DNA of 64,000 bases from positions 13,027 through 77,026 of the forward strand of contig JAJDCH010000010.1 of NCBI GenBank assembly GCA_029260905.1. The letters are read 5' to 3'. The translations under genes were made by a program, and so were the position numbers. Shown here in pieces: positions 34,724 to 60,985 of this stretch; positions within the stretch are counted from its first letter, which is position 1; every line of letters starts with the position of its first letter. The notes beneath the pieces were generated by a model that was not told the origin of the DNA, made no database searches, and saw nothing but the letters and a program-made list of their open reading frames with translations. Origin of the DNA: Candidatus Levyibacteriota bacterium. Its GTDB lineage: Bacteria > Patescibacteriota > Microgenomatia > Levybacterales > UBA12049.

Positions 34724-35274
34724 CTGGAGTTACGGATTTAAGAGCAGGAACAACATATGAAGAAAACGGTCAGTATTTTACAGTAATTTCATATGAACAT
34801 ATAAAAATGGGCAGGGGTAGCGCCAATATAAAAGTAAAGGTAAGAAATATAAAAACAGGATCAACAACGGAAAAAAGCTACATAAATGGAGCAAAGATAA
34901 ATACAGTTCCTCTAAGTAAAAAGGATATGCAATATCTTTATAAAGATGATTCAGATGTTTTTTTTATGGATCCAGCAACTTTTGAACAGGTAAGTATCTC
35001 TTTAAAGCTTGTTTCAGGTCATATGTTTCTTAAAGAAGGAGAGAGCTTTTCTGTTAGTTTTCTTGAAGGAGCGCCTCTTGAGGTATCACTTCCATCAAAA
35101 ATGATTTTCAAGATAGCAGAAACAGCACCAGGTGCAAAGGGTAATTCTGCAACAAATGTTTTTAAGGATGCAGTGCTTGAAAATGGGGTTAAGACAAAAG
35201 TTCCTCTTTTTATAAAAATAGGAGAAGAGATTAAAATTGATACCAGAACGGGCGCATATAGTGAGAAGGCATGA
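34720..35274 (+). CDS. efp: elongation factor P
   Basis: 'LRAGTTYEENGQYFTVISYEHIKMGRGSANIKVKVRNIKTG' is the EF-P KOW-like N-terminus. Confidence 0.9.
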   Translation: MTGVTDLRAGTTYEENGQYFTVISYEHIKMGRGSANIKVKVRNIKTGSTTEKSYINGAKINTVPLSKKDMQYLYKDDSDVFFMDPATFEQVSISLKLVSGHMFLKEGESFSVSFLEGAPLEVSLPSKMIFKIAETAPGAKGNSATNVFKDAVLENGVKTKVPLFIKIGEEIKIDTRTGAYSEKA

Positions 35275-36536
35275 ACAAAAACGCATTTTCCGCATTATCG
35301 GAGAAGCCTTTCCTAAATCTTTGGATCGGCGAAATTTTTACACAAATTCCAACTCATCTATTTAATTTTTTCCTCATCCTGATTATTTTTAATCTTACTA
35401 AATCAAATACAATAGTATCTTTTGCTGTGCTGACATTTACAGTTCCAGCGATTATTTTTGGATCAATAGCTGGTGTGTTTGTTGATAGATGGAACAAGAA
35501 AAAAGTTCTTGTAATCACCAATTTAATAAGAGCATTTTGCCTTATTTTTCTAATGTTTTTTCTTGATAATATTTTTGTAATTTTTGCTGTTTCACTTGTT
35601 GTATCTATTTTGGTTCAATTTTTTATCCCAGCTGAGATTCCAATGGTTCCACTTTCTGTATCGTCTAAAAATCTTTTTTCGGCAAATGCGCTTTTTGGTA
35701 TTGCAATTTTTGCATCAATTTTAATTGCCTATGTTTTTTCTGGATCGGTAATTTTATTAGTTGGGCAGAGAATGACTCTTTTTATTCTCGCAATTATGCT
35801 AACTATTGGTGCATTTTTTATATGGAAAATAAAACTTGCAAAAAAGGAGCAAGACTCCAAGAAATTTTCATCACCAGATGTGTTTCACGATATAAAAAAT
35901 ACATTAAAGTTAATGCAAAGTAGTAATTCAGTAACAAATTCTCTTATTCTTCTTGCGTCTTCACAGATTTTAATTCTGGTCATAGCAACAATTGCACCAG
36001 CTTACGCTACAGATATATTGAAAATAAGAGCAGAAGAGTTCCCGCTTTTATTTGCTGTTCCAGCTGCTATTGGAATGGGGGTTGGTGCTGTAATACTTGT
36101 TAATTTTTTTCAAAATAAATCAAGAGAAAAAGCAATAAATATAGGCATAGTTCTTGCTGGTTTATCTATTTTGCTTTTGCCATACTGTGCAGATATCGCT
36201 TCATTTTTTTCAATAAAGCAAGGATTATTTTTTATACCTAGTTTTTTAAATGTGACAATTATTCAGCTCGTGACAGTAGGTTTTCTGGCTTTCTTTATTG
36301 GAGTATCAAATTCTTTTGTTACAGTTCCTGCAAATACGATGCTTCAGGAAAAAACAGAAAATCGTGTCAGGGGTAAGATTTATGGACTTTTAAACATGAT
36401 TGTTGGAATCTTGTCACTTTTGCCGATCTTGATTAGTGGAGGCCTCTCAGATATAGTTGGAGTAGGTAGTGTAATAACAGCAATAGCATTATTAATTATA
36501 GCAATAGGAATTGCTAAGTTTTTTCAAAGAACATGA
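35271..36536 (+). CDS. MFS transporter
   Basis: 12 transmembrane segments and the 'GVFVDRWNKKKVL' loop motif. Confidence 0.7.
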   Translation: MNKNAFSALSEKPFLNLWIGEIFTQIPTHLFNFFLILIIFNLTKSNTIVSFAVLTFTVPAIIFGSIAGVFVDRWNKKKVLVITNLIRAFCLIFLMFFLDNIFVIFAVSLVVSILVQFFIPAEIPMVPLSVSSKNLFSANALFGIAIFASILIAYVFSGSVILLVGQRMTLFILAIMLTIGAFFIWKIKLAKKEQDSKKFSSPDVFHDIKNTLKLMQSSNSVTNSLILLASSQILILVIATIAPAYATDILKIRAEEFPLLFAVPAAIGMGVGAVILVNFFQNKSREKAINIGIVLAGLSILLLPYCADIASFFSIKQGLFFIPSFLNVTIIQLVTVGFLAFFIGVSNSFVTVPANTMLQEKTENRVRGKIYGLLNMIVGILSLLPILISGGLSDIVGVGSVITAIALLIIAIGIAKFFQRT

Positions 36537-37171
36537 TTTTTTTAGTTCAAATTCCATCATTTTTAATCTTTTTATATGTCCTCTACAAGTTAAGTAGGGA
36601 TGATTATGTTTTAATTCGAAAAAATATCTCTCAAGAGATGATTTTTGATGCTGGATTTTTGACTGTTTTGATTGGTTTTTTGGCGCCTCGCATTTTATAT
36701 TTTATATTGGTTGTTCCCGATTCAATTAAAACAATTAATTTTATGCTAAGTTCATATCTTATTGCTGCTTCTACATTTCTATATTTTATGTCACGATACA
36801 AAAAATTCCCAACATATAGAATATATGATTTCTTTACTTTATCTTTTTTGATTGCGCTTCCTTTTGGATTATTTGTTTCTGCTTTTTTCTTAGAAAATGT
36901 TTTACAGTTTTTAGTATTTGCAAGCAGTTTTATCTATTTAGTTCTTTCATTTTTATTTATGCTTTTCCTGTATCCAAGACTTATGAGAAATGATTTGAAA
37001 GAGGGGAGTATTACTATTTTTTTCTTTATTCTTTTTTCATTAATTACATATGCTTTTTTAATTATGGAGAAAGGAATGAGTCTTTCAAATTTAGTACGCG
37101 AAACACACATTCCATCGATTTTAATTCTTTTAATTAGTATATTTCTTTTAATAAAACAATCAAGAAGATAA
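36533..37171 (+). CDS. hypothetical polytopic membrane protein
   Basis: 212 aa and very hydrophobic. Confidence 0.35.
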   Translation: MIFLVQIPSFLIFLYVLYKLSRDDYVLIRKNISQEMIFDAGFLTVLIGFLAPRILYFILVVPDSIKTINFMLSSYLIAASTFLYFMSRYKKFPTYRIYDFFTLSFLIALPFGLFVSAFFLENVLQFLVFASSFIYLVLSFLFMLFLYPRLMRNDLKEGSITIFFFILFSLITYAFLIMEKGMSLSNLVRETHIPSILILLISIFLLIKQSRR

Positions 37172-40235: not shown

Positions 40236-41114
40236 ATGGATGAAATAAGAAAAAATCTTTTAATGGATCAGGCGGTTGATACTTCACATAAGGTAACGAT
40301 AGATGCCAAAACCTGGAGACGTCCTAGGAAAAAGGGGAAATTTTTTTCAATTGATAAGAGGCAAAAATTTGTAATATCTACTTTAGTATTGTCACTTGGT
40401 TTATTTTTTACAGAGTTTCAGTTGAGTCAGTCGGGGATAGTGATTCCACTTATTTTGGCTATTCTTACCGTGGTATTTCTTTTTTGGGCAATTAGGCTTG
40501 ATGTAAAGGAGAATAGATCTTTTGAAGTTTTTTTACTTCCGTTTTTTTATAGTCTTTCGTTTGGCCTTTTTTACTTTCTGACACCTACTTCCTTTCTGAT
40601 TCATCTTCTTCTTGTTGCTGTCTACGCCTTTGGGATGTATTCAGTTTTTCTAAGTTCCAATATTTTGGTTGTTTCATCAATAAGGACAATCACGCTTTTG
40701 TCGGGCGCAAGGATAGTTTCCTTTGTTGCAGGACTTATTTCATATTTCTTTTTAACCAATGCGCTTTTTGCTCTTCATATAAATGTTTTTTTCGTGGCGC
40801 TTATTATTTTCTTTTATAGCTTTCCACTTGTCCTTCACTCCTTGTGGACATATGATCTAGCCAAGAATCAGAAGATCAATGTTTGGTCTTTGGCACTTTC
40901 GGTTTGTCTTGTTGAGGGCGCATCTGCCTTGTGGTTTTTCCCATCTAGTCCTACTGTGATAGCTCTTTTCATGTCAGGGTTTTTCTATACGATTGTTGGT
41001 CTTTCACACATCTGGTTTGAAAGGCGTCTTTTTAAAGGAGTAATGTGGGAGTATGTGTGGGTTGGTTGTATTGTGTTTTTTGTCCTAATATTATTTACCC
41101 CATGGGGAAAGTAG
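40236..41114 (+). CDS. hypothetical polytopic membrane protein
   Basis: 292 aa with multiple transmembrane helices. Confidence 0.35.
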   Translation: MDEIRKNLLMDQAVDTSHKVTIDAKTWRRPRKKGKFFSIDKRQKFVISTLVLSLGLFFTEFQLSQSGIVIPLILAILTVVFLFWAIRLDVKENRSFEVFLLPFFYSLSFGLFYFLTPTSFLIHLLLVAVYAFGMYSVFLSSNILVVSSIRTITLLSGARIVSFVAGLISYFFLTNALFALHINVFFVALIIFFYSFPLVLHSLWTYDLAKNQKINVWSLALSVCLVEGASALWFFPSSPTVIALFMSGFFYTIVGLSHIWFERRLFKGVMWEYVWVGCIVFFVLILFTPWGK

Positions 41115-42173
41115 GTAGGTCTTGAAAGTCGGGAACAGGGGAGTAAGGGGAATTTAAGTCCTATAATTATGTGATATAATTTGATATAGTAATGTGGATA
41201 ACTTTTCACAGAACTGACTTTTCACAGTCAATAATTATATATGACTATCACTCATAATCAAGGCTAAATGATATAGTTTGATACTACTTATTTCTTTATA
41301 GAAGTAGGATGATTGGTTACCTTGACTTTTTTCTAGCTCTTTCTTGCAAATAACGCCTAAAAGATTATTATTTAGTTAGTAAAATTTTTATATTTACTCT
41401 CCTTATTATTTTATTGAGCCTAATACTCTTTATGGGGAAGAAGGCTAATCAAAAAAAATACGAAAACGTTTTCGGGATAATTTTGAGGCTAAAAATTTAT
41501 GTTTAGACTGTTAATTCAATCTAAAATGAATAAAATTGCATAGTGCTTCTGAATGATATTTAAGGCTAAAAATTGCTGTTTAGATTGATTTTGCAGGCTA
41601 AATTCACATTCTTACAACATCAATCATCAGGGACCAACTAGTGCTAGAGTCCATCTGATCAGTTTTGTCAAAGTGTTATAGAAACTGATTAAGTAATTTA
41701 AATTGTTTTACTCTAATGAAAGAAGCAAGAAGTGATAACCCCTACGCCACTCTATTTGCGTTGTTTGCTATAAGGAATGTCTTGTTTGGTAAAAAAAGGC
41801 CATTATAGTCGCGGAGAAGGAAATACTCTTATGTCGCACAATAATACTTTTACGACATGAACCAGGCTCAAAGCCAGGGGGGAGGAGTCTCTGGGTTTTG
41901 TTAAATTCAAGTAAAATAAATCTATTTAATTATTTTTTTGTTTTTAACTCTGAGTAATTACCCTCTTAAATCTTCTTTGGTTCCCGAGTCAACTTTATGA
42001 GTCTCCCCTATTTACTATGGGTTATAAATTTGAAGCTAAAACACTAATATTTGTGCCTAAAAACACAAAATCACTCCCCCCTTTATAAAACTTTGGCTGG
42101 AGAAGTGTATTTTCATACGCGTTTCTTTCTTAAAAAGCTTGAATAAGATCATTTCTAATGGTAAGATTGACTT
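41115..42173. other. 1.06-kb AT-rich region with no ORF of 60 aa or more, carrying dispersed imperfect direct repeats
   Basis: Repeats 'gaggctaaaaatttatgtttagactg' (41485-41510), 'aaggctaaaaattgctgtttagattg' (41563-41588) and the related 'gcaggctaaattcacatt' and 'gaagctaaaacac...gcctaaaaacac'. A tandem 'acttttcacag' sits at 41201 and 41217. Confidence 0.5.
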
Positions 42174-44105
42174 ATGGGCCAAAGCATCTTAGCTCTCAAA
42201 AAGATTCAAAAACAGCCCAAGGTTTCTGTTGGAACACAAGTAGCAGATCTTCACATACAGGGAGCACTATACGCAGCTATCAAATCACATAAGGATGAAT
42301 TTGATCTTGCTGAAATAAATCGTGAAAACAGACTTGAATATAGCAATGAAGTGCATATAAGAAATTTTCATGAAGGGATTCATACAGCATTGAATGAATC
42401 AGGACAACGTAGAAATGTTAAATATATAGCTGTTGGGCTTCATGGGAAAAATGATTTTAAAACAAGTATTTCAGAGCTTTGGCTGAAAGAAGATATTGTT
42501 CCATTTGTTTTTGGAAAGACACGGGAGAATAGAAGTATCACAGAGGTCGCACGTGAGGTCTCATCGCATTTTAATGATGAGAACCTGGTCTATGTGCAAA
42601 TGAATACTACAAATGAGGTAAAGGTTTCTGAGCTTGTTTCGCTTGAAGACTACAGAAAGACAGTACCAGACGAGGATTTTGGTAATCTTAAATTTTTGGT
42701 TAAGAAATTTAAAGGTAAGAAGCTTACTTTTTTGGGAGCAACACCTCAGGGTGGAGGCGTTGCCTTGATGAGACATGCATTAATCAGGTTATATAAATTG
42801 CTTGGGGTTGATGCTCATTGGTATGTTTTGATTCCCAAGAAAGAAGCATTTGCAATTACAAAATCAAAATTTCACAATGTTCTTCAGGCTGTTTCTCCTG
42901 TGGGAATCGAGCTGACAGATGAAGATAAGGATATCTATAATTCGTGGACTGATGAGAATGCTAAGAAGTTTGCAAGTGTATTTAAGAATTCAGATGTTAT
43001 CGTGGTTGATGATCCTCAGCCTGCTGGGTTGATACCGTATATAAAAAAGATAAACCCAAGGGTCAAAATAATATATAGATCGCATATTCAGATTGTTGGT
43101 GAGCTGGCAAGCACAAATAATACAGTTCAGCGTAAAACTTGGGAATTTCTTTGGAAAAGCATCCAGCTTTCAGACTTGTTTATAAGCCATCCGATTAAAG
43201 AATTTATTCCATCAGATGTGCCAATGGAAAAGATTTTATATATGCCTGCAACAACTGATCCCTTAGATGGGCTTAATAAGCCTTTGAGTGAGGCGCAGAT
43301 GAATTATTATATGAGGATTTTCAATAAACTTCTTCTTATTCAAGAGGGGCAAGCGCCACTAGATATGAATCGGCCATATATTGTGCAGATAGCCAGATTT
43401 GATCCTGCAAAGGGAATTCCAGATGTGATCGAGTCATATAGAATTCTTAGGGAGAGGCTGGTTAAAGAAGGAAAAGTTATACCAAGTCTTGTGATTGGCG
43501 GAAACGCATCAGTAGATGATCCGGATGGTGTGCCGGTTCATAATGCGACCCTAGAGCTTCTCAAGACTGATAAATACAGTTATTTGTCAGATGATGTTAA
43601 GGTAGTCAGGCTTCCGCACCTAGACCAGCTCTTAAATGTATTACTTCGCAAAAGCCATATAGTTCTTCAGCTTTCAACTAAAGAAGGCTTTGAGGTAAAA
43701 GTAACAGAAGGGTTAATGAAAGGAAAACCAGTTGTTGCATATAAGACTGGTGGGATTCCGCTTCAGATCGAGGATGGTGTAAATGGGTTTTTGATAGAGC
43801 CAGGAAATACACAAGAGGTTGCTGACAAGATGTATGAGTTGTTTGTAGATAAAGGGCAGTACAAGAAGATGAGTGCAGCTGCAGTTCAATATGCCAATAA
43901 AGATTATCTGACTGTTGCAAATGCGATTTCATGGCTTTTTATGGCTGTGTATCTTCAAGCAGGACATAAAGTGAGTGGTAATTATCAATGGGTGAAGGAT
44001 CTATCTCAGGCATATTATTATAATTCTCAAAACTCAAGTGATAAAATCCTCTCCCGACTCATGCCACTTGGAAAAAAGATTGGAGAAAGACTGAAGAAGA
44101 AATAA
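42174..44105 (+). CDS. GT4 retaining glycosyltransferase, trehalose-synthase (TreT)-like, with an N-terminal extension of about 170 aa
   Basis: 'ATPQGGGVALMRHAL', 'VVDDPQPAGLIPY', 'QIARFDPAKGIPDVIESYR' and 'STKEGFEVKVTEGLMKGKPVVAYKTGGIPLQIEDGVNGFLIE' match TreT/GT4 motifs from memory. Confidence 0.6.
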   Translation: MGQSILALKKIQKQPKVSVGTQVADLHIQGALYAAIKSHKDEFDLAEINRENRLEYSNEVHIRNFHEGIHTALNESGQRRNVKYIAVGLHGKNDFKTSISELWLKEDIVPFVFGKTRENRSITEVAREVSSHFNDENLVYVQMNTTNEVKVSELVSLEDYRKTVPDEDFGNLKFLVKKFKGKKLTFLGATPQGGGVALMRHALIRLYKLLGVDAHWYVLIPKKEAFAITKSKFHNVLQAVSPVGIELTDEDKDIYNSWTDENAKKFASVFKNSDVIVVDDPQPAGLIPYIKKINPRVKIIYRSHIQIVGELASTNNTVQRKTWEFLWKSIQLSDLFISHPIKEFIPSDVPMEKILYMPATTDPLDGLNKPLSEAQMNYYMRIFNKLLLIQEGQAPLDMNRPYIVQIARFDPAKGIPDVIESYRILRERLVKEGKVIPSLVIGGNASVDDPDGVPVHNATLELLKTDKYSYLSDDVKVVRLPHLDQLLNVLLRKSHIVLQLSTKEGFEVKVTEGLMKGKPVVAYKTGGIPLQIEDGVNGFLIEPGNTQEVADKMYELFVDKGQYKKMSAAAVQYANKDYLTVANAISWLFMAVYLQAGHKVSGNYQWVKDLSQAYYYNSQNSSDKILSRLMPLGKKIGERLKKK

Positions 44106-44171
44106 TTCATGCAATTGTATCTTTCTGTTTGCATTTGACTTCCATCATGTCGTAGAATATATTTACTGCCC

Positions 44172-45107
44172 ATGAAAAACCTAAATCTTACTGAGCAAAT
44201 CCAGCAATTTCTTGAATATCTGGAGATTGAAAAAAACTGCAGCAAGCTTACTATTCGTGATTACAAACATTATCTGGAGGTGTTCAATGATTGGTTTGCT
44301 ACTTCCCTTCCAGGAAAAACTGTAAAAGATTTGGATTTATCACTTATACGAAAATACAGAGTTTTTCTAGCTAACTATCAGGACGCGAAAGGACGAAGTA
44401 GAAAAAGGGTTACGCAAAATTATTATGTTATTGCCCTACGATCATTCTTGAGATTTTTGATCAAAAATGATGTTCAAACTCTAGAACCTAGCAAGATAGA
44501 TCTGCCTAAAACAGAAAGCAGAAGTTTGAAATTTTTAGAGAGAGACCAGGTTGAAAGACTTGTCACAACACCAGATACCAGCAAGGAAGATGGTGTACGA
44601 GATAGAGCTGTTTTGGAGTTGCTTTTTTCAACAGGTCTTCGTGTATCAGAACTGGTATCACTTAATCAAGAAAAGATAAATCTTGATAGACGGGAATTTG
44701 GAGTAATTGGAAAAGGGCAAAAAGCAAGAATTGTTTTTATATCTGATAGGGCTGCTGATTGGATTGGTAAATATCAACAAATAAGAAAGGATAGTTTTAA
44801 GCCGCTTTTTATCAGATATTCTGGAAAAGTGATTGATGAAAATGGTGGTGAGAAAATGAGGCTTACTGTAAGATCGGTTGAACGAATTGTCAAAAAATAT
44901 ACTCGTCTGGCAAGACTTCCAGTTGATGCGACAGTTCATACGCTCAGGCATTCATTTGCAACGGATTTACTTATGAATGGAGCAGACCTCAGATCTGTTC
45001 AGGAGATGTTGGGACACAAGAATATCGCAACTACACAAATCTATACCCATATTACAAATAAACAATTAAGAGATGTTCATAAAGCCTTTCATTCTGGGAA
45101 TAAATAA
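44172..45107 (+). CDS. tyrosine site-specific recombinase, XerC/XerD-like
   Basis: C-terminal 'HTLRHSFATDLLMNGADLRSVQEMLGHKNIATTQIYTHI' contains the R..H..R..Y catalytic tetrad region. Confidence 0.8.
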   Translation: MKNLNLTEQIQQFLEYLEIEKNCSKLTIRDYKHYLEVFNDWFATSLPGKTVKDLDLSLIRKYRVFLANYQDAKGRSRKRVTQNYYVIALRSFLRFLIKNDVQTLEPSKIDLPKTESRSLKFLERDQVERLVTTPDTSKEDGVRDRAVLELLFSTGLRVSELVSLNQEKINLDRREFGVIGKGQKARIVFISDRAADWIGKYQQIRKDSFKPLFIRYSGKVIDENGGEKMRLTVRSVERIVKKYTRLARLPVDATVHTLRHSFATDLLMNGADLRSVQEMLGHKNIATTQIYTHITNKQLRDVHKAFHSGNK

Positions 45108-46298: not shown

Positions 46299-46319
46299 TT
46301 AAGTAATTGTTCTCGACAA

Positions 46320-46352
46320 CCTTACATGCTTGAGAATGTAAGGACGTTGTTT
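46320..46352 (+). terminator. putative rho-independent terminator
   Basis: A perfect 8-bp stem ccttacat/atgtaagg with loop gcttgaga, followed by a T-rich tract. It lies between convergent genes. Confidence 0.4.
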
Positions 46353-46412
46353 AAAAATGATTTTACATTAGATGTTTTAAATTTAAGAAAGCAAAACAAG
46401 TGTTTGGAGTTT

Positions 46413-47162
46413 TTAGTAAGTCTCGTAGGAAAGGGTGATTGTTACTGAGATTTTATTTTCCCCAGGACTTAGCTCGGTTGGTGCTTTTTCTGCTGCATCA
46501 AGAGCAACTGCTGTTCTCTCAAAGGGAATTGGGCCTCCATTGCTTCCTGACTCTTGGACGTCAACTAATTTTCCTAGTTTTATTCCTGTATCCTTAGCAA
46601 GATTTTCAGCTTTTGTTTTTGCATTGGCGATTGCTTCCTTTCTTGCATTACTTTCTGCTTTTTCTCTATCCTCCTCACTGAGAATAAATTGTATGCTACC
46701 AACTTGTGTCGCACCATCTTTTGTTGCGATGTCAATTGCTTGATTTGCCATTTCTATAGAATCCAAATTTACACTTAGGGTTGCGTTAACTTGATATCCA
46801 TTTGGGCTTTGCCTTCCATTTGAAAAATCGTACTGTGGGCTAACCGAATAATTGCTGGTTTTAATATCCTTCTCTCCTATACCTAGTGATTTGAGATCTT
46901 TTGTAATTAAATTGATAATTGTATTTACTTCATTTTGCGTTGCTTCAACTGTAGCGCCTTCTTTATTTACGCCAAGTGAAATCATAGCAGTATTAGGAAC
47001 AGCAGTTGCTTCTCCTGTGCCAGAGGCAGAAAAGAAGCTTGATTTATTGGTGGTAATACTGGTTACAGAAAAAGGAATAGGACCAAAGATTTTGGTAAAT
47101 ATAAAAAGAGATAAAAGAGCAAAAGCAATTGTCAGAAAAGGAACTTTAAGATCTCTTAGCAT
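46413..47162 (-). CDS. SIMPL-domain (DUF541) protein
   Basis: An N-terminal transmembrane segment or signal, then 'SYSVSPQYDF...NGYQVNATLSVNLDSIEMANQAIDIA', which is typical of SIMPL/BP26-like proteins. Confidence 0.7.
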   Translation of the reverse strand: MLRDLKVPFLTIAFALLSLFIFTKIFGPIPFSVTSITTNKSSFFSASGTGEATAVPNTAMISLGVNKEGATVEATQNEVNTIINLITKDLKSLGIGEKDIKTSNYSVSPQYDFSNGRQSPNGYQVNATLSVNLDSIEMANQAIDIATKDGATQVGSIQFILSEEDREKAESNARKEAIANAKTKAENLAKDTGIKLGKLVDVQESGSNGGPIPFERTAVALDAAEKAPTELSPGENKISVTITLSYETY

Positions 47163-47201
47163 ATATCTATATTAGAGGTTTTTTTGTTAATTTGTCAAAT
47201 G

Positions 47202-48290
47202 CTATTCCCAGCGGAAAGTGCGGGCCGCAAGCGCATACATCAAAATCCCCCAAATAGAAAGTCCTGCTATGAATTTATCTGTATCGCCTAGGCTTCCTCC
47301 TTCAGCTGTAATTATTCTAATTGCCTGATTGAAGTACGAGAGTGGAAGATTGTTAGCAATTGGTTGGAGCCATGATGGAAGATTTTCAACTGGAAAGAAT
47401 GTTCCACTTAACAAAAGCTGAGGAAGTGTAATGAGATTAACTAATGGACCTGCTGAATTTTCATCATTGGCAAGACCAGCAAAAAAATATCCAAATCCGA
47501 GAAAAGCTATTAGTCCAATTGTTGTAATTATCATTATGTTCCAAAAGGTCTGAAATCCATGCGGGAGATAAAAACCAAATGCATAGATACCTATTCCAAG
47601 AATTATTACTGTTTGAGTAAGGGCTATGATAAGCCTGCTTGTTCCTTGTCCTAGAAGAAGAGATAGAGGGCGTGCTGGTGTTGCAAAAAGTCTTTTCAGA
47701 ACAAGTGTTTTTTTGAGATATACTATTCCAAAAACAGTCCCAAAGATTGCGGTTGACAAAAGAGCAAATCCTATTTGCCCTGGAAGAGCAAAATCAATAT
47801 AGCGAAATTGTCTGCCAGATAATTCTTTTTTGAATAAAGTGAGATAGGGTTTTTCAATTCCAGCAATCCTTAGATTCGTTTCATCTATAAGCCCTCGCAT
47901 TATTGACTCGATAGCTTGAGCTTGCTGGGGATTGGCAACTGATGTTGTAATTGTTACATCATGTGGTTGCATTTCGATAATTCCTGATAATTTTCCTTGG
48001 ACAAGTTCTTGTTCGAGAACTGATTTTTTATCTGTTTTCAGCTTCATGTATGATTGTTCTTCAATCACTGTTAGTATTTGATTTGGTTCTGTGCTGTCAG
48101 GAATGCCGATGGTTAGGGTCTGGGTACTGTTGCCAATCAGACCAAAGATAGTTATGAAAACAACCGGAAAAATAAATCCAAATGCAAATGTTGCAGGATT
48201 TCTAGTTTGGGCGATAAGCGAATACCAAGTCATTGCAAGATAGGCTCTTATCTGATTTGTTTCTTTTAATTTGTTTTTTTGTCTGCTCAT
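47202..48290 (-). CDS. ABC-2-type transporter permease
   Basis: 6 transmembrane helices with a large first extracytoplasmic loop. It sits immediately downstream of an ABC ATPase. Confidence 0.7.
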   Translation of the reverse strand: MSRQKNKLKETNQIRAYLAMTWYSLIAQTRNPATFAFGFIFPVVFITIFGLIGNSTQTLTIGIPDSTEPNQILTVIEEQSYMKLKTDKKSVLEQELVQGKLSGIIEMQPHDVTITTSVANPQQAQAIESIMRGLIDETNLRIAGIEKPYLTLFKKELSGRQFRYIDFALPGQIGFALLSTAIFGTVFGIVYLKKTLVLKRLFATPARPLSLLLGQGTSRLIIALTQTVIILGIGIYAFGFYLPHGFQTFWNIMIITTIGLIAFLGFGYFFAGLANDENSAGPLVNLITLPQLLLSGTFFPVENLPSWLQPIANNLPLSYFNQAIRIITAEGGSLGDTDKFIAGLSIWGILMYALAARTFRWE

Positions 48291-48291
48291 G

Positions 48292-49092
48292 CTACTCGTC
48301 TCTTAAATGTCTGCCAGTAAGATCTAGAAAAACATCCTCTAGTGTTGCATTCTGACGGGATATTTTTTTCTTAAAACCTTTTGCAAGTAAATCCTTTACA
48401 AGTTTTTTGGGCTTATCAATCTTTAAAATTTTTCCACCATCCATGATGGCTACTCTGTCACAAAGCTTTTCTGCCTCTTCCATGTAGTGAGTTGTAAGGA
48501 CTATTGTTGCGCCTGTTTTTTTAATATCACTTACCATTTCCCAGAGATTCAGTCTTGCCTGTGGGTCAAGTCCGGTTGTTGGTTCGTCAAGAAAAACAAT
48601 TTTTGGTTTGTTAATCAGAGTTGTAGCTATTGAGAATCTTTGTTTTTGTCCGCTAGATAAATTGTCAGCATAACTGTCAGCTTTTTCAATCAGGTTAACT
48701 TTTTCTAGCATTTTTTCAGCATCAACATTTGTGTCATAAAAAGCTCCAAACATCTTGAGAAGTTCAGTTAATTTTAATTGCGGGTAGAAATTTGATGATT
48801 GTAGTTGAATTCCTATTTGAGATTTTACCTCCCAAGGATTTTTTAATGTATCAAATCCATCTACTGTAACTGTGCCGTCTGTTTGCTCCTGTAGAGTTTC
48901 GATTATTTCAATTGTTGTTGTTTTTCCTGCGCCATTTGGACCTAGAATTCCAAAGATTTCTCCTTTTTTTACAGAAAATGAAATGTTATCAACTGCCTTG
49001 AAGTCGCCAAATTTTTTAATAAGATTTGAAACCTGTATTATGCTGCCATCACTGATTATCCTTTTTCTGCGGGCTTTTCTGCCAATTGCCAT
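48292..49092 (-). CDS. ABC transporter ATP-binding protein
   Basis: Walker A 'GPNGAGKTTT', signature 'LSSGQKQR' and Walker B 'VFLDEPTTGLD'. Confidence 0.85.
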   Translation of the reverse strand: MAIGRKARRKRIISDGSIIQVSNLIKKFGDFKAVDNISFSVKKGEIFGILGPNGAGKTTTIEIIETLQEQTDGTVTVDGFDTLKNPWEVKSQIGIQLQSSNFYPQLKLTELLKMFGAFYDTNVDAEKMLEKVNLIEKADSYADNLSSGQKQRFSIATTLINKPKIVFLDEPTTGLDPQARLNLWEMVSDIKKTGATIVLTTHYMEEAEKLCDRVAIMDGGKILKIDKPKKLVKDLLAKGFKKKISRQNATLEDVFLDLTGRHLRDE

Positions 49093-49136
49093 TTGGTCAT
49101 TGTACCACGAACAAGCCTAGAAGAAAAGGGAGGTTA

Positions 49137-49772
49137 TTATTTTTTTGCAGCTTTTTCTTCAAGAAATTTTTTACCATGGCCAACTGTGGTATTTATCGGG
49201 ATGTTGGATTTGCAAAGCGGGCATTCATTATCGGTATAAGATGGAACTTCATAGACTGCAAGAGATGAAAAAGGCGCACCCATCATTTTTTCGGTTACAA
49301 GATTTGGATCGCGGTTTACCATTACACAAACTTCGACTATGTTTCCCCCAGTTCGTCTAACCATATTGACTACTTTTTTGACAGATCCACCGGTTGTGGT
49401 GAGATCTTCGACTATCAAAACATTTTTTCCATTTACCAATTTGTCATAACCCCTTGTAAATATTTGATTTTTCTCAGTATCTTTTTCTGTGTAAACACCA
49501 AGAACTTCTTTCTGTTTTAATTTGGACAAATGATACGCGACCCAAGTTGAAAGAATAATTCCACCTAGCGCTGGTCCGACTACCACATCTATGTCTTGAT
49601 CCTTATACTTTTTAGCAAATAATTCTCCTATTCGAGATGTTTCAGTAGTGTGCGGATAGAGAGCGTCTTTATTTATGTATGCTGCAAAATGGCGTCCTGA
49701 TGTACCAACAAAATGACTATCAGCAATTATGGCCTGTGTTTTTTTTAGTATTTCAATAACCTCGTCGTTCAT
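49137..49772 (-). CDS. pyrE: orotate phosphoribosyltransferase (type I PRTase)
   Basis: PRPP-binding 'VLIVEDLTTTGGS'. The gene is adjacent to pyrF. Confidence 0.6.
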   Translation of the reverse strand: MNDEVIEILKKTQAIIADSHFVGTSGRHFAAYINKDALYPHTTETSRIGELFAKKYKDQDIDVVVGPALGGIILSTWVAYHLSKLKQKEVLGVYTEKDTEKNQIFTRGYDKLVNGKNVLIVEDLTTTGGSVKKVVNMVRRTGGNIVEVCVMVNRDPNLVTEKMMGAPFSSLAVYEVPSYTDNECPLCKSNIPINTTVGHGKKFLEEKAAKK

Positions 49773-49779
49773 AAAAGTA

Positions 49780-50580
49780 TTAAATACGAAACTTATTTAT
49801 TTCGTCTCTTAGTTTTTCTGCTTCTTGTTTGGGATTTTCTGCAAAGATTATACTTCTTGAAGCATTGATTATCAAGCCTTTCTTTTGGGAGTTTATTCCG
49901 GCTTTTACAAATCTCTCAGCTGTTCCGCCTTGTGCGCCAATGCCTGGGACAAGAAGAGTCATGTCGCCAGCAATCTGTCGAATTTCAGCTAGTTCTGTAG
50001 GATAAGTAGCGCCAACTACTAGTAAGCAATTATTTAATTTATTCCAATCAGTTGCAACGTTTTTTGCAATAATTTGATAAAGGGGTTTTCCATCAACGAG
50101 TAGATTTTGAAATTCTTCTGAGCCTTTATTGGAACTTTTGCACCAAATAATCAATCCTTTATCTGGAATATCCAAAAATGGCTGCAATCCAACTTTTCCA
50201 ACGTATGGATTAAGTGTTACTGCGTCAGCTCCTATATAATCAAAGGCATAATTGATGTAGCCCAAATTGGAGCTGTCTATATCGGCTCTTTTGAAGTCCA
50301 AAATGATGGGAATCTCTGGATAGTTTTTCCGTAGATAATCACAAGTCATTTTCAGCTCATGTATTCCCTGCTCGCCTCTTGCTTCGTAAAATGCAGAGTT
50401 GGGTTTAAACGCACAGATAAGATCAGTCGTTGCGTCAATTATTTTTTTATTAAATTCAAATTGCGGATTATTTTGGGTTTTTATTTTTTCTGGAAGCTTG
50501 TCTAAATCAGGATCAAGCCCCACACAAAGAAGTGAGTTATTCTTGTCAATCACTTTGTCTAATTTTTGTTGAAATGTCAT
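49780..50580 (-). CDS. pyrF: orotidine-5'-phosphate decarboxylase, long type-2 form
   Basis: 'LCVGLDPDLDKLP' and 'ILDFKRADIDSS' are subfamily-2 OMP decarboxylase motifs. Confidence 0.8.
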   Translation of the reverse strand: MTFQQKLDKVIDKNNSLLCVGLDPDLDKLPEKIKTQNNPQFEFNKKIIDATTDLICAFKPNSAFYEARGEQGIHELKMTCDYLRKNYPEIPIILDFKRADIDSSNLGYINYAFDYIGADAVTLNPYVGKVGLQPFLDIPDKGLIIWCKSSNKGSEEFQNLLVDGKPLYQIIAKNVATDWNKLNNCLLVVGATYPTELAEIRQIAGDMTLLVPGIGAQGGTAERFVKAGINSQKKGLIINASRSIIFAENPKQEAEKLRDEINKFRI

Positions 50581-51650
50581 CTGTTTTTAGTTTCTTTTAT
50601 TTCTTGTGCTAGATATGGATTCCACATGACACCTGTTACGCTAGTTACTGCATCAGCTCCGGATTCCATAAATAATTTATAATGGCTGGCATTAAAGACT
50701 CCTCCAGTTCCTATTATCTTGTAATCAAATTTATTTTTTTTCCTTATTGACCTAAGATCTTTTATCATTTCAATACTCAGATGTCTTATGCAGTCTCCGC
50801 TTACACCAGCTTTTCCAAATCTTGGTTCATCCATTAGTATCGGATTTTTATTTTCATCAACGATTTTTGCCTGAATTGTATTTATAGCTGAATATGCATC
50901 AACATATTCAGCTGTTGCCCTGATCAGATCTTCCAAAATTTTTTTATCTTTAAAGTATGCGAGCTTTACTATGATTTTCGTATCCCCTATTTCTTTTTTT
51001 ACCTCAGATATAATTTTCTTCATCCTTTTAACATCAAAACACAACAGGCTTGTCTTGCCTGCATTCGGACAACTGGTATTCATCTCAATAAGATCAACAC
51101 CCGTTTCTTTTATGAGTCTTGCTCCCTTGGTCCAGCTTTTAAGAAATAGGGCAAAGTCAGAATCGGGAATAGCCTCATAGCTACAGATAAGTACTTGACC
51201 TTTTCTAAGATAGTCTAGGACGCTACGAAGATCTTTTTGCCAAACACCTGGTTCAAATGAAGGATTATTAAAAGAGTTGATGATATTTAAAGGTTCATAA
51301 TATTTATTTGTTCCAACCACTCCTGCTTGAGCTTTATCAATACTGAGGTTTCCTTTTATTTCCGATGCGGCAAGTATATTTGGAAATTTATTGGAAGGAT
51401 ATTTTTCAGGTCTTACTGTTTTGTGGGTTACGATATCAAACCCCTTATCAAGCGCTGCTTTTACAAATCTGCCGTTATAGAGTGGCCCTGCTCCTATTCC
51501 AAACGGAAGATAGACTTTATGACCTAAAAAGTCGTAAGCCGGCTCGCCATGATCTTTAATAACTTTTCCATCAGCAAACGCGCCAAATGGACCATTTTTA
51601 TAGTTATCATCAAAAGTTTTTTCTGGATCGTAAAAAGGTGTGTGTAGCAT
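50577..51650 (-). CDS. pyrD: dihydroorotate dehydrogenase-family flavoprotein, class 1-like
   Basis: 'LIEMNTSCPNAG' (active-site Cys loop) and 'IIGTGGVFNASHYKLFMESGADAV' (FMN-binding C-terminus). Confidence 0.65.
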   Translation of the reverse strand: MLHTPFYDPEKTFDDNYKNGPFGAFADGKVIKDHGEPAYDFLGHKVYLPFGIGAGPLYNGRFVKAALDKGFDIVTHKTVRPEKYPSNKFPNILAASEIKGNLSIDKAQAGVVGTNKYYEPLNIINSFNNPSFEPGVWQKDLRSVLDYLRKGQVLICSYEAIPDSDFALFLKSWTKGARLIKETGVDLIEMNTSCPNAGKTSLLCFDVKRMKKIISEVKKEIGDTKIIVKLAYFKDKKILEDLIRATAEYVDAYSAINTIQAKIVDENKNPILMDEPRFGKAGVSGDCIRHLSIEMIKDLRSIRKKNKFDYKIIGTGGVFNASHYKLFMESGADAVTSVTGVMWNPYLAQEIKETKNR

Positions 51651-51651
51651 A

Positions 51652-52632
51652 TTATTTTATTCCCATTGCTTTTCTTCCGTTTATTGTCGCGACTTTAACT
51701 ATTTCTTCAATATCAAACCAGCGGTTTGCTTCCATCAGGAGTCTAAGGTCATTCCACATATTTCCATCATTCATGGGCTTGAAGATATCATAAAGATTAT
51801 CAATTCCTATCGCAACTGGTATGCCAAATTTTGTCAGCTCATCAGCTGGAGTTATGGAATTGTGAGTTGGTGTCATTACTTCGCTTCTCCAACCATCTAT
51901 CCAAGACATTGGATTTGCTACCATTATCATTTTCGCTTTTTTCATCTGTTTGTAGACTTCTTCTCTTTCTTTTCTTGGTCTGGCTGCAATTGATATTCCA
52001 TGTATGCCGACAACTTTTTCTTCCATTCCATATTCAATTGTTTTTCTGGCAAGTAGTTCTGTCTCATGTTCTTCGGGGATGTTCAGCTCATCAACATGCA
52101 TGTGAACCATTTTATTTTTTTCTTTTGCAGTCTTAAGAATTATGTCTATATGTTCTTCTTCATGTGGTGAATCTGTTTTAACTGTGCTTCCGATGATGTC
52201 AGCAAAATCAGCTCCCACCTCAAACCAGTCTCTATTTTCTTTTTTCAAAACACCATAAGTCGGAAGACAAATGTATTTTATTAATATTTGCGATTTGTAT
52301 GCATCCCTTGCTTTCTCTGCTGCTTTTATTGCTTTGTCTTTTACATCCGGTGTTACATCTATAAAAGAAACAGTTGCAGTAACATCTTGTTCAATCATCA
52401 GCTCAAGTGATTTTGCAATACGGTCATAAATCTGATCAACAGTTGAGTTTTTTCTGATGTCTTTGTTTAGAAGCCATTTTTGATCACGTTTCTTGTTAAC
52501 TAATTTGAAAAGCTCAGGTGTGACAGTATAGGATCTATCAAAATGCGCATGGGCATTGACCCATCCCCCATTCTCTTTAATTTTTTGAAGAATTATTTCT
52601 TTTAAGTTTAAATAGTCAATTTTATTAGTCAT
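51652..52632 (-). CDS. amidohydrolase-superfamily protein, cytosine-deaminase (CodA)-like
   Basis: 'VNAHAHFDR' (HxH), 'VHMHVDE' (compare CodA VHCDE), 'MVANPMS' and 'GIDNLYD' (compare CodA GHDDVFD). Its position would fit pyrC, but the sequence is more CodA-like. Confidence 0.5.
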   Translation of the reverse strand: MTNKIDYLNLKEIILQKIKENGGWVNAHAHFDRSYTVTPELFKLVNKKRDQKWLLNKDIRKNSTVDQIYDRIAKSLELMIEQDVTATVSFIDVTPDVKDKAIKAAEKARDAYKSQILIKYICLPTYGVLKKENRDWFEVGADFADIIGSTVKTDSPHEEEHIDIILKTAKEKNKMVHMHVDELNIPEEHETELLARKTIEYGMEEKVVGIHGISIAARPRKEREEVYKQMKKAKMIMVANPMSWIDGWRSEVMTPTHNSITPADELTKFGIPVAIGIDNLYDIFKPMNDGNMWNDLRLLMEANRWFDIEEIVKVATINGRKAMGIK

Positions 52633-52645
52633 AATTTATTAATAA

Positions 52646-53581
52646 TTAGTTTAGCATATTCATGAGAAAAAGCATTAGTGATTTTTGTACGTGGAGTCTG
52701 TTTTCTGCTTCTTCAAAGACAACTGATTGTGGTCCATCTATCACATCAGCAGCTATCTCATATCCTCGGTATGCAGGGAGACAATGCATAAAGATTGCAT
52801 CTTTTTTGGCAAAATGCATCAGAGTAGAATTTATCTGATAAGGCTTAAATATTTTGAGTCGTTTATCCTTCTCTGCCTCACTTCCCATACTAACCCACGT
52901 ATCTGTCACTACTACATCAGCTCTGCTAACTGCAAGTTTTGGATCATTTGTCTCAAATATTTTTGTTTTTGTTTTTTCTGAGATTTTTTTTGCCCTTTTT
53001 ACAATATCGTGATTCATCTCAAATCCTTTAGGACTGGCCAAGGAAAAATTTATCCCAAGCATCATCGCCCCAAGTAGCATGGTGTGGGTAACGTTATTAT
53101 TTCCATCTCCAACAAATCCGATTGTAAGTCCTTTTAATTTTTTCTTTTTTTCAAGAATTGTCTGGAAGTCTGCTAAGATTTGGCACGGATGTTCTAAATC
53201 TGATAGCGCGTTTATGACAGGAACTGATGAATTTTTTGCAAGTTTAACAATTGATTCATGAGAAAAAGTCCGTGCCATGATGATGTCTGACATGCTGGAT
53301 GTAACGCGAGCTACATCTTCAATCGATTCTCTTTTTCCAAGGCCAATGTCAGTTGGTCCCAGATAAATTGCATGTCCTCCTAGTTGAGTCATCCCAATCT
53401 CAAATGAAAGTCTTGTGCGAAGGCTTGGTTTTTCAAAAATCATTACCAAAGTTTTGTTTTTTAGATACTCTGTTGCTTTTTTGCTTGATTTTAATTTTTG
53501 TTTTAGCTTTATGGAATTTTTTAGAATAGAGAGGATTTCTTTTTCTGTGAGGTCAGTAATTGATACTAAGTGTCTAATCAT
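52646..53581 (-). CDS. argF: ornithine carbamoyltransferase
   Basis: 'SLRTRLSFE', 'HPCQ', 'DTWVSMG' and 'HCLPA' are OTC motifs rather than ATCase motifs. Confidence 0.75.
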   Translation of the reverse strand: MIRHLVSITDLTEKEILSILKNSIKLKQKLKSSKKATEYLKNKTLVMIFEKPSLRTRLSFEIGMTQLGGHAIYLGPTDIGLGKRESIEDVARVTSSMSDIIMARTFSHESIVKLAKNSSVPVINALSDLEHPCQILADFQTILEKKKKLKGLTIGFVGDGNNNVTHTMLLGAMMLGINFSLASPKGFEMNHDIVKRAKKISEKTKTKIFETNDPKLAVSRADVVVTDTWVSMGSEAEKDKRLKIFKPYQINSTLMHFAKKDAIFMHCLPAYRGYEIAADVIDGPQSVVFEEAENRLHVQKSLMLFLMNMLN

Positions 53582-55191: not shown

Positions 55192-55339
55192 TTTCGTATA
55201 TTCTTAGTTTAAAATCTTTAAAAAGATATATTTTGGTGTTAAAAAAGTCTAATTTTTTCTTATTCTTATGCTATTTTAGAGAATTCTGGTTAATATGTCA
55301 ATAAATCATTATTTTGACATAGTTTGGAGAGTGGAGATT

Positions 55340-56290
55340 TTAAGATTGTTTTTCTGCAGCGGTTATGAGGTTTTCCATTAGTTTTGCTACATTTACAGGT
55401 CCGACTCCGCCAGGTGTTGGTGTATAGTATCCAGCGATATCTTTTATTTTTTCTACATCATAATCGCCTTTTAATTTTCCGTCTTCTCCCCGTAGTATAC
55501 CAACTCCCACAAGTATCACGCCTTTCTTGATTTTTTCAGGAGTAATTATATTTTCCCGTCCGACTGCCCCCGCTATGATATCTGCATGCCTCATTATTTC
55601 ATCTGGATTTACAGTCTTGCTGTCAATGAGTGTAAACGGCACATCAAGTTTCTTCAGGTAGTCCATGATAGGCCCCCCACCGGTCGGGCCTTTGCCGAGG
55701 ATAATTATTTTTTGGCTTTTGAGCCAAGAAAAGAAATCCGAATTTCGAATATCGAAACTCGAAACAATATCAGAATTATAATTTTCAAAGCTCAAAGCAT
55801 TTTCATCATTTGTATTTTGATTATTTAAATTTGTTTCGGATTTCGGATTTTGTGCTTCAAATTTGAAATATATTTCCTCCAAAATTCTAACTACAGCTAG
55901 TGGCAGCGGTAGTGTGTATGGTGAGTTAGGGTGAAATCCGTCAATATCTTTTTCAGGGTTTGTCGACATTTCAAGTTTTTCAACATTTATTTGATCGGGA
56001 AGTGGTCGTTGGATTAGTATTCCATGAACAGCTGAGTCATCATTTAGTTTATTTAATTTATCAAGTAGCTCATCAGTTGTCACTGTAGTTGGGTAATCTA
56101 GAAGTGTAACCCTGGCACCTATTTCCTCGCCTTTTTTTTGCTTGAGTGCTACGTATGCAACCGATGCAGGATTTTCTCCAACTAAAAACACTACTAAATG
56201 AGGTATTATATTTTTTTTATTTAACTCCCCTACTCTTTTTTTTAATTTTGCATAGATTTTTTCAGCTATTTCTTTCCCGCTTATTTTCAT
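55340..56290 (-). CDS. folD: bifunctional methylene-THF dehydrogenase/cyclohydrolase, with an internal Asn-rich insertion of about 45 aa
   Basis: 'VVFLVGENPASVAYVALKQKKGEEIG', 'HGILIQRPLP' and 'YTPTPGGVGPVNVAKLMENL'. The insertion is 'KFEAQNPKSETNLNNQNTNDEN...'. Confidence 0.8.
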   Translation of the reverse strand: MKISGKEIAEKIYAKLKKRVGELNKKNIIPHLVVFLVGENPASVAYVALKQKKGEEIGARVTLLDYPTTVTTDELLDKLNKLNDDSAVHGILIQRPLPDQINVEKLEMSTNPEKDIDGFHPNSPYTLPLPLAVVRILEEIYFKFEAQNPKSETNLNNQNTNDENALSFENYNSDIVSSFDIRNSDFFSWLKSQKIIILGKGPTGGGPIMDYLKKLDVPFTLIDSKTVNPDEIMRHADIIAGAVGRENIITPEKIKKGVILVGVGILRGEDGKLKGDYDVEKIKDIAGYYTPTPGGVGPVNVAKLMENLITAAEKQS

Positions 56291-56310
56291 AGATTTATTA
56301 TAGCTTATTA

Positions 56311-60386: not shown

Positions 60387-60397
60387 AACGTCTTTTA

Positions 60398-60940: not shown

Positions 60941-60985
60941 ATATTTATTATAAATTATAACACAGTAACAACCTCAGACATTTAT

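Follow-up and report, generated by a model that had tools for sequence, protein, structure and literature searches.

A conserved, motif-dense noncoding locus tied to a Xer-type recombinase gene in a clade of Patescibacteria

Patescibacteria, also referred to as the candidate phyla radiation (CPR), have genomes of about 1 Mb with hardly any intergenic DNA, and to our knowledge almost nothing is known about their cis-regulatory and chromosome maintenance sites. We analyzed a stretch of 64,000 nucleotides (nt) from Candidatus Levyibacteriota bacterium (GenBank assembly GCA_029260905.1, contig JAJDCH010000010.1, positions 13,027 to 77,026 of the forward strand), here called the window, and in particular a gap of 1,059 bp between two of its genes, at positions 41115-42173. 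Judged from sequence comparison, this gap is a functional, lineage-specific noncoding locus; it is neither junk nor a pseudogene, nor is it the leader of the downstream gene, which encodes a TreT-like protein. It is conserved, clade-specific, motif-dense noncoding DNA that appears tied to the nearby gene of a Xer-type tyrosine recombinase (xer), and it is more than a set of AT-rich repeats. Our leading, though tentative, explanation is that the gap acts primarily as DNA, through putative protein-binding sites and promoter elements that are arranged in a set order and are functionally coupled to xer. The weighing of DNA-type against RNA-type features made this the most likely reading and small, unstructured RNAs its main rival.

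The gap is bordered by two plus-strand genes, one for a membrane protein of the DUF5656 type (40236/40263-41114) and the other for the TreT-like protein (42174-44105). It is the largest of the 62 gaps between open reading frames (ORFs) in the window, for which the median is 17.5 bp and the runner-up measures 525 bp. The longest ORFs located wholly inside it comprise 30-41 amino acids; a 74-amino-acid ORF with a GTG start (40985-41209, minus strand) covers the left 95 nt of the gap and is mostly antisense to the end of the DUF5656 gene. A preliminary description of the window, made from the letters alone, had reported an ORF-free 1-kb spacer in a compact genome together with a number of repeats; these figures bear out the former, and every repeat that it listed was found in place.

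The comparison set consisted of ten loci from Patescibacteria, namely, the window and nine relatives found via homologues of the DUF5656 protein, of which there are many in Patescibacteria (58-71% identity), and via their contigs. These loci share a common gene order that the window matches: EF-P, MFS, hypothetical, pseudouridine synthase, LytR_C, TPR (minus strand), YebC, DUF5656, the gap, a variable segment, xer, and SIMPL (minus strand). A number of observations were made. (i) An ORF-free gap without a conserved gene, 773-1,427 bp in length, follows directly after DUF5656 in all nine relatives. (ii) The alignments consist of near-identical islands separated by spacers that cannot be aligned. 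Of the gap positions in an alignment of eight genomes, 114 do not vary at all and 213 agree in at least seven genomes, and these positions are clustered in ten runs. (iii) The third codon positions of the DUF5656 genes are only 31-46% identical to those of the window, which corresponds to saturation. Since the blocks are invariant although third codon positions are saturated, they are under strong purifying selection, and their identity across such genomes indicates that the gap must do something important. Chance similarity of AT-rich DNA, which the preliminary description had named as a possible explanation of the repeats, is not the case, because the elements recur at homologous positions in relatives with saturated neutral sites. 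(iv) The motifs are concentrated in the gap: within the 12.8-kb loci, nearly every GGCTAAA and every plus-strand copy of TTTTCACA lies inside it in most cases, the single minus-strand DnaA box lies inside it in all eight loci that carry one, and the gap motifs are absent from 301 kb of unrelated loci.

What lies to the right of the gap differs between loci. The right-hand neighbor is a trehalase gene on the minus strand in seven loci; there is nothing before xer in L045, whereas L046 contains the trehalase gene plus several further called genes. In the relatives, the 3' end of the trehalase gene faces the gap. Among the ten loci, only the window has a TreT gene on the plus strand at this place. 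Since the next gene differs in this way, the gap does not belong to TreT, and the proposal in the preliminary description that it is a long leader of this gene is refuted by the retention of the gap and its blocks beside an opposite-strand trehalase gene or with no gene before xer. Scans of genome and metagenome collections with TreT retrieved only relatives of 38-65% identity (Ktedonobacteria and Levybacteria), in which the upstream DNA is unrelated; TreT homologues elsewhere thus occur without the gap region.

The link to xer is provided by Block E, a 28-bp palindrome in the right half of the gap (Table 1). The left 12-13 nt of this palindrome appear a second time within the promoter of xer, in its -10 region. 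Each of the ten loci, the entire 64-kb window included, has exactly two copies of the motif ATGTCG.A.AAT, one in Block E and the other, on the same strand, in the xer promoter; base composition predicts ~0.26 copies per window. In the two most distant loci, L045 and L046, the xer-proximal copy ATGTCGCACAATA is a 13-mer identical to that in the locus's own Block E, and for this reason the sharing of the motif is not considered a coincidence. We read this as use of the same recognition element at Block E and at the xer promoter. In the main clade, the xer-proximal copy lacks the second arm. The preliminary description had drawn attention to the XerC/D-like gene downstream, which proved apt, and the promoter motif now offers a concrete handle on the function of the gap.

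The promoter pattern TTGCAW-N17/18-TAGAAT upstream of xer is kept in the eight main-clade loci. The distance from the -10 element to the start codon is 6-16 nt (6 nt in L036, L038, and L039), so that the xer mRNA is probably leaderless or has a short leader. The protein reaches 250 bits with the NCBIfam model for XerD (cutoff, 330) and 249 bits with that for XerC (cutoff, 335), below the cutoff in both cases, and it is not an integron integrase according to models TIGR02249 (103 versus a cutoff of 265) and PRK15417 (63 versus 435).

Table 1. Features of the gap and of the xer gene in the window
Feature	Position	Strand	Description
Block A, purine run GGGAACAGGGGAG	41131-41143	+	Near-invariant in the eight-genome alignment; ~17-30 nt past the DUF5656 stop codon
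Block B, promoter-like cluster AAGTCCTATAAT, TGATATAAT, TGATATAGT	41156-41190	+	Three -10-like hexamers ~10 bp apart, two with TGn extension
DnaA-box-like triad, TGTGGATAA and two ACTTTTCACAG	41193-41227		TGTGGATAA is a perfect TTATCCACA on the minus strand
Block B, whole	41156-41227		Includes the promoter-like cluster, TGTGGATAA, and two ACTTTTCACAG
Block B', AGGCTAAATGATATAGTTTGATA	41261-41283	+	Second copy of both repeat types; in window, L035, L036, L039, and L041
Block C, AAAAAAAATACGAA then weak A/T palindrome (CGAAAACGTTTTCG in window)	41451-41474		A8-TACGAA at 41451-41464
Module D1, GAGGCTAAAAA site and 28-bp palindrome TGTTTAGACTG-TTAATT-CAATCTAAAAT	41485-41527		Palindrome of 11-6-11 type; kept in 9/10 loci
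Module D2, AAGGCTAAAAA site and 28-bp palindrome	41562-41604		Second copy, 77 bp past the first
Block E, ATGTCGCACAATAATACTTTTACGACAT	41831-41858		28-bp palindrome with outer arms ATGTCG/CGACAT; unique in the 64-kb window
Block E tail, GA..CAGGCTCAAAGCC then G-run GGGGGGAGGAG	41859-41887	+	GC-rich segment of the preliminary description
Block E'', GTAATTACCCTCTTAAATC	41954-41972	+	Consensus TAATTyCCCTnTTAGTT; main clade, constant distance from Block E
Block F, CTCCCCTATTTACTATGGGTTATAAATTTGAAGCTAAAA and second site GTGCCTAAAAA	42003-42063		Consensus CTCCCCTAyTTACTATGGGTTATAAATTTGAAGCTAAAA and second GCCTAAAA site
Block G, C-run/G-run inverted repeat CACTCCCCCC...GGAGAAGTG then TATTTTC	42072-42114		Hairpin in most loci, foldable on both strands
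xer promoter, TTGCAT-N18-TAGAAT	44129-44171	+	ATGTCG directly upstream of -10 (ATGTCGTAGAATA at 44147-44159); start codon 13 nt past -10
XerC/XerD-like tyrosine recombinase gene	44172-45107	+	Syntenic in 10/10 genomes; Pfam Phage_integrase and SAM_1

The left half of the gap begins with Blocks A and B. Two runs in Block B, 41155-41169 and 41172-41190, are near-invariant, and a promoter function of this block is inferred from the consensus match alone, as is the case for all promoter calls in this study. The perfect DnaA box TTATCCACA (minus strand, 41193-41201) is the only one in 64 kb and abuts the first of two copies of ACTTTTCACAG, which start at 41201 and 41217 and have no other copy in the window at 0-1 mismatch. 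This pair corresponds to the tandem 11-mer seen in the preliminary description, which is thereby confirmed and becomes part of a DnaA-box-like triad. Boxes 2 and 3 of the triad differ from TTATCCACA at three positions and fit TTWTNCACA with one mismatch. Two TTTTCAC copies are found in all ten loci, and their starts are 15-25 nt apart. Of the six copies of AGGCTAAA in the window, four are located at 41261-41602, all on the plus strand. The spacer between Blocks B and C varies from 182 to 264 nt across loci. In Block C, the A-run and TACGAA are invariant in eight of the ten loci; there is a single A-to-T change in L038, and the block is absent in L043. The distance from Block C to the next GAGGCTAAA site is 29-30 nt in six of the seven loci in which both can be placed and 35 nt in L034.

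Each D module is composed of a GAGGCTAAAA site followed by a palindrome with the consensus CGTTTAGAyTG-ATTTAA-CArTCTAAACG, and the module is duplicated in the window, L035, and L039. The window has two copies of GGCTAAAAATTNNTGTTTAGA, one at 41487 and the other 77 bp further on, at 41564; shuffling gave an expectation of 0.10 copies, and only 1 of 100 shuffles contained two. Over 12 copies of the palindrome, the arms form 98 Watson-Crick, 11 G-T, 5 A-C, and 18 other pairs, and one position varies among T-A, T-G, and C-G.

In the right half, the left 13 nt of Block E are conserved in all ten loci, and only four positions vary across its 28 bp. Position 7 is C in most genomes, which results in a C-A mismatch, and T in L036 and L041 (T-A); in L043, its partner is G (C-G). 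The consensus past Block E reads CAGsCTCArA.CC and is followed by the G-run: a run of the GGGGAGG type begins 45-48 nt past the start of Block E in all ten loci (GGGGAGT in L034 and GGGGAAG in L039). The preliminary description had noted a GC-rich, hairpin-like segment at 41860-41895. Such a segment is present, and a terminator-like hairpin is scored in the window at 41874-41894, but the hairpin is not kept in the relatives, which share only the G-run and the sequence that precedes it. The TACTATRGG of Block F is located 180-182 nt past the Block E start in seven loci, all of the main clade. A GAGGCTAAA-like site follows at 195-203 nt in the eight loci that have one on the plus strand, and in six of these eight the GAGGCTAAA-like sites are paired at a distance of 11 or 20-22 nt; the T-rich sequence between these spaced sites is not conserved. 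In the window, copies related to GGCTAAA are found at 42032 (GAAGCTAAA) and 42053 (GTGCCTAAA). L043 and one D module of L039 carry the GAGGCTAAA/ATTTGAGGC motif at its usual place but in the opposite orientation. At Block G, a T-run follows the hairpin in most loci, and there is a weak terminator-like Rfam match on the minus strand; the block probably serves as a terminator in both directions, at the end of the locus and, in the relatives, of the trehalase gene.

Searches for RNA genes gave negative results. At the gathering threshold, no Rfam family matched the gap in the window or in seven relatives, and a single tRNA was found elsewhere in the window. A permissive search (E ≤ 10) of the gaps of the window and L034 returned only noise, the best gap hits having E values of 0.3-8 and belonging to unrelated eukaryotic or Staphylococcus families, and ARAGORN detected no transfer-messenger RNA (tmRNA). 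The Rfam scan that the preliminary description had suggested thus finds no family in the gap, and its failure to fit RNase P RNA, tmRNA, or signal recognition particle (SRP) RNA by eye is supported by both programs. RNAalifold, applied to the left part, the E region, and the E-to-G segment on both strands, predicted only hairpin E, a TGTGGA/TTCACA dyad, and a pairing of the G-run with the Block G C-run, at -5 to -14 kcal/mol. Overall, the helices amount to hairpins D, E, and G plus one G-run/C-run pairing, with 0-3 pairs that show double changes, for which a comparison of ten genomes has limited power. The minimum-free-energy z scores of the E-to-G segment average ~-0.9 on either strand across the ten genomes, and in sliding windows the dips of the score are found mainly around the D palindrome, with some loci showing one close to Block E as well. 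Protein coding was equally absent: the only stop-to-stop peptides common to the genomes are all-frame translations of the invariant Block E, and the identity by codon position is flat (0.53-0.56), without codon periodicity. A 9-codon ORF at Block E (MSHNNTFTT) and a +1 frame (CRTIILLRH) that stays open for 12-97 codons were both rejected because of inconsistent starts and stops, invariant synonymous sites, and the lack of periodicity. BLAST searches against plasmids and phages gave no match, and Block E was not found in the IMG/VR viral contigs (0 matches).

Several features of the gap point to recognition as double-stranded DNA: the fixed spacings, the paired sites that are one or two helical turns apart, the use of a motif in either orientation, the two unrelated 28-bp palindromes, and the opposed and tandem DnaA-type boxes. 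In the DNA-level array that we favor, a single DNA-binding factor, which could be a repressor or the recombinase, would recognize ATGTCG-YASAAT at Block E and at the xer promoter and would tie the expression of xer to whatever assembles or is transcribed at Block E. The left end would be an extended -10 promoter cluster, and since the DnaA box and the two weaker TTTTCACA boxes overlap the start region, DnaA would regulate these promoters or be titrated there. The GAGGCTAAA sites and the 28-bp 11-6-11 palindromes would be sites for further factors, and the C-run/G-run hairpin would close the unit as a bidirectional terminator. Several points weigh against this proposal. (i) The binding sites and the proteins that would occupy them are predictions. 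(ii) We know of few precedents for nonorigin arrays of DNA sites of 1 kb in streamlined genomes. (iii) The presence of one motif at both Block E and the xer promoter could be due to a promoter architecture that the two have in common and not to a common bound factor. (iv) The perfect DnaA box is missing in L043 and L046 and thus is present in 8 of the 10 loci. (v) The pairing-preserving changes, namely, the 11 G-T versus 5 A-C pairs in D and position 7 of Block E, would also fit hairpins in a plus-strand RNA. (vi) By eye, -10-like hexamers are found upstream of the GAGGCTAAA sites, which together with the Block B elements are compatible with small transcription units.

The last two points lead to the main rival, which we rate as rather unlikely: the gap would encode one or more small, largely unstructured plus-strand RNAs, one starting at the Block B promoters and ending with the D hairpin (~330 nt) and another from Block E to the G hairpin and its U-run (~280 nt). 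The blocks would then act as promoters, as hairpins at the 5' and 3' ends, or in single-stranded form as seeds or protein-binding sequences. In addition to the hexamers and the G-T pairs already mentioned, the extended -10-like elements (TGnTAnnnT) in Block B, the conservation of hairpins D, E, and G, the T-runs past hairpin G, and the long-range G-run/C-run pairing with G-U, which is predicted on the plus strand only, agree with such transcripts. They are opposed by the absence of an Rfam match, by a consensus folding energy of only ~-10 to -14 kcal/mol over 340-360 columns, by mean z scores of ~-0.9 on both strands, by the inversion of the GAGGCTAAA motif in two genomes, and by the lack of a U-tail after the D hairpin on the plus strand. 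Furthermore, a promoter with a transcription start at Block E was above background in only 3 of the 10 loci and was rejected. A single large structured noncoding RNA (ncRNA), be it of an undescribed class or a strongly diverged RNase P RNA, tmRNA, 6S RNA, or SRP RNA, is very unlikely and in large part refuted. The length of the gap, its conserved position, and its islands of invariant nucleotides in a compact genome do resemble large ornate RNAs such as OLE, GOLLD, ROOL, and raiA; unlike these, the gap lacks covariation and a conserved secondary structure, resembles no Rfam family even in the permissive search (E ≤ 10), and offers only three local hairpins with unremarkable z scores; no tmRNA is called, and the length of the B-to-C spacer ranges from 182 to 264 nt. 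The structured ncRNA considered in the preliminary description consequently finds no support. The least probable of all readings, which we regard as refuted by the conservation of the gap, is a neutral remnant, that is, a decayed gene, the scar of a mobile element, or a long TreT leader. The replacement of the right-hand neighbor (TreT for trehalase) shows that the region has seen rearrangement, and the Logan contigs L001 and L040 break here. Nevertheless, the blocks are invariant despite saturated synonymous sites, the locus is kept in genomes without TreT, and there is no gene at this place in the relatives, no conserved peptide or periodicity, and no similarity to plasmids or phages; the suggestion in the preliminary description of a decayed mobile element or pseudogene is not supported on the same grounds, and the alignment with related genomes that it had proposed reveals no relative with an intact protein gene in the gap.

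Two further rivals assign the gap to chromosome maintenance. Block E might be the core site of the neighboring recombinase, either a noncanonical dif of this clade or a site of the cer/psi type, which we regard as unlikely, though less so than the structured RNA. Sites of the cer/psi type consist of a core site and ~160-200 bp of accessory sequence; the fixed-length right arm of ~200 bp would accordingly play the accessory part, and the recombinase would regulate its own gene via the half-site in the xer promoter. Block E is exactly 28 bp long and can be parsed as 11-6-11 (ATGTCGCACAA-TAATAC-TTTTACGACAT) with arms that are alike at 8 of 11 positions (ATGTCGCACAA and ATGTCGTAAAA). It is syntenic with xer, the only recombinase gene, in all ten loci, and the promoter of that gene repeats its arm motif. 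The flanking blocks are constant in length, and the genes that lie between Block E and xer differ among loci. In XerS, a system with a single recombinase, a conserved sequence that contains the site is located immediately upstream of the gene (PMC1914069). The association of a conserved ~28-bp site with a gene of the Xer family is shared with both cer/psi and XerS/difSL, and the fixed-length conserved DNA on one side is shared with cer/psi. However, the ATAA-N6-TTATGT core that is near-universal in published dif sites is missing, since Block E reads ACAA-N6-TTTTACGAC, and a scan with the pattern ATAA-N6-TTATGTnAA, which represents the XerD arm, gave no match in the gap and 26 in the window versus 24 expected. 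Counted from the sequence, only three of the six pairs between positions 7-12 and 17-22 are complementary, whereas the published palindrome rule for dif demands more than four (PMC3025954); a canonical dif is rejected by the pattern scan and by this rule. The palindrome of Block E is formed by its outer 6-8 bp and not by the inner arms, which are the palindromic part of difH (PMC3325230); in this respect, Block E also differs from cer/psi and XerS/difSL. Further differences are that it is located 0.5-4 kb from xer with only a half-motif at the gene, whereas the XerS site is adjacent, and that, unlike in both systems, the locus is chromosomal but not at a skew switch and has no known accessory proteins. 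In addition, the GC skew at 4-fold-degenerate sites keeps its sign within -41/+22 kb, the synteny breakpoints do not coincide with Block E, and the xer-proximal copy in the main clade has no second arm. A wider proposal, which we consider more doubtful still, is that the locus is an as yet undescribed chromosome maintenance hub of this clade of Patescibacteria, composed of a noncanonical Xer site, a phased accessory arm of ~200 bp, and the DnaA-box triad; such a hub would couple recombinase expression, site-specific recombination, and DnaA at one fixed nonterminus position of a genome of ~1 Mb. That the gap is the chromosomal replication origin or terminus region is highly improbable. As is the case for oriC, it is a long noncoding region at a conserved position, the longest in the window, with short motifs separated by variable spacers, namely, the only perfect DnaA box of the window within a cluster of three boxes, iterated motifs, and AT-rich tracts; gene orientation changes from plus to minus at ~46.3 kb, and the cumulative GC skew over all sites peaks near 45 kb. 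Against this, the plus strand is G rich at 4-fold-degenerate sites for genes of either orientation on both sides, with skews of 0.14 (left, plus-strand genes), 0.41 (left, minus-strand genes), 0.31 (right, minus-strand genes), and 0.10 (right, plus-strand genes). The skew at third codon positions is alike in the window and in seven relatives (±6 kb), apart from a near-zero value that concerns two L034 genes. Since both measures keep the plus strand G rich on both sides, the all-site peak is a coding-strand effect. There is thus no replication-strand change in composition of the kind expected for oriC across the gap, within the -41/+22 kb that the window provides, a reach that leaves a shift point just beyond the window conceivable. 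Furthermore, only one DnaA box conforms to the consensus, matches to DnaA boxes are not enriched in the window (19 observed versus 19.2 expected), and neither dnaA nor dnaN is among the 33 of ~63 window genes that were scanned with Pfam or NCBIfam.

The triad also invites comparison with DARS1, DARS2, and datA of Escherichia coli, which likewise are intergenic noncoding loci with three DnaA-type boxes, one of them a perfect consensus. In the DARS core, boxes I and II are opposed and box III has the same direction as box II (PMC6868365), and the orientation of the three boxes in the gap is the same. The opposed boxes of the gap abut (0 bp), whereas those of DARS are separated by 5 bp; furthermore, two of the boxes are degenerate, the consensus box is absent in 2 of the 10 loci, and the triad accounts for only ~35 of ~1,000 bp. 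The orientation thus matches while the spacing and two boxes deviate, and the locus is not to be classed with DARS. Likewise, it is not to be filed under dif, oriC, any Rfam family, integrons, or leaders, since for each of these at least one tested defining feature failed; as for integrons, the best models of the recombinase are XerD and XerC (~250 bits), with the integron-integrase models below their cutoff.

Other candidates were discarded as well. (i) A TIGR array or box C/D RNA, based on two weak matches to snoRNA families, was not reproduced in the relatives, and no Tas gene is nearby. (ii) An invertible segment of the fim type, suggested by CCTATAAT and its complement near both ends of the gap, was rejected because the orientation is the same in all ten loci. 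(iii) LexA-type boxes in Block C, CIRCE half-sites in GAGGCTAAA, and a CRP site (TGTGG-N8-TCACA), all noted by eye, show only a partial likeness, and their second half-sites are not conserved.

If Block E is the Xer site of this clade, a new type of dif and a marker for genome finishing would be gained; if the blocks act as RNA, CPR-specific small RNAs would be added. Either way, the set of blocks is already usable as a query across CPR genomes. Short parts of the blocks also occur in viral contigs. The 17-mer TGTGGATAACTTTTCAC, which spans the DnaA box, was found in 75 of them (L047 to L121), corresponding to three large groups of near-identical phages and about a dozen unrelated contigs; in some (e.g., L057, L070, and L076), it is part of tandem DnaA boxes, and none contains the other blocks. 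For TGATATAGTTTGATATAG, there were eight matches to unrelated viral contigs.

Additional copies of the Block E left arm were noted in the two most distant loci. L045 contains an inverted pair, ATGTCGCAC...GTCGACAT, at 8010-8076, ~160 nt upstream of xer, and L046 has, besides its xer-proximal copy (11701-11713), an extra copy on the minus strand at the right edge of the gap (8236-8248). The called xer start in L035 and L038 is too far downstream.

The gene at 42174-44105 is a plus-strand trehalose synthase of the TreT type, whereas eight of the nine relatives have a minus-strand trehalase gene (7831-9249 in L034 and its equivalents in the others). On the gene orders compared, the difference is an in-place swap of two trehalose enzymes, and horizontal acquisition of TreT is suggested by its nearest homologues, which are from Ktedonobacteria and one metagenome-assembled genome of Levybacteria (52-65% identity). 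Of the two Logan contigs from SRR15505512, a sample that contains both the organism of the window and that of L039, one (L040) stops 2 nt past Block E, and the other (L001) begins with the start codon of TreT. Stretches that are identical in the two organisms, of which Block E is an example, probably tangle the assembly graph.

Other long gaps in the window are found at 18273-18797 (525 bp), 10608-11015 (408 bp), and 11541-11874 (334 bp), none with an Rfam match. ARAGORN called a tRNA-SeC at 36489-36568, across the junction of two ORFs that overlap (35271-36536 and 36533-37171). As the Rfam tRNA model is silent there at the gathering threshold, this call is probably false. From 46299 to 63000, 14 of 15 genes are on the minus strand, including a pyrimidine biosynthesis cluster, argG, folD, gyrA, and gyrB. 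Given that the plus strand is G rich, i.e., of the leading type by its 4-fold-site skew, a 17-kb block of apparently head-on genes is unusual. The genes gyrB and gyrA lie together on the minus strand at 57816-62950 and are followed by a divergent gap of 262 bp (62951-63212) and by the last two small ORFs of the window (63213-63975).

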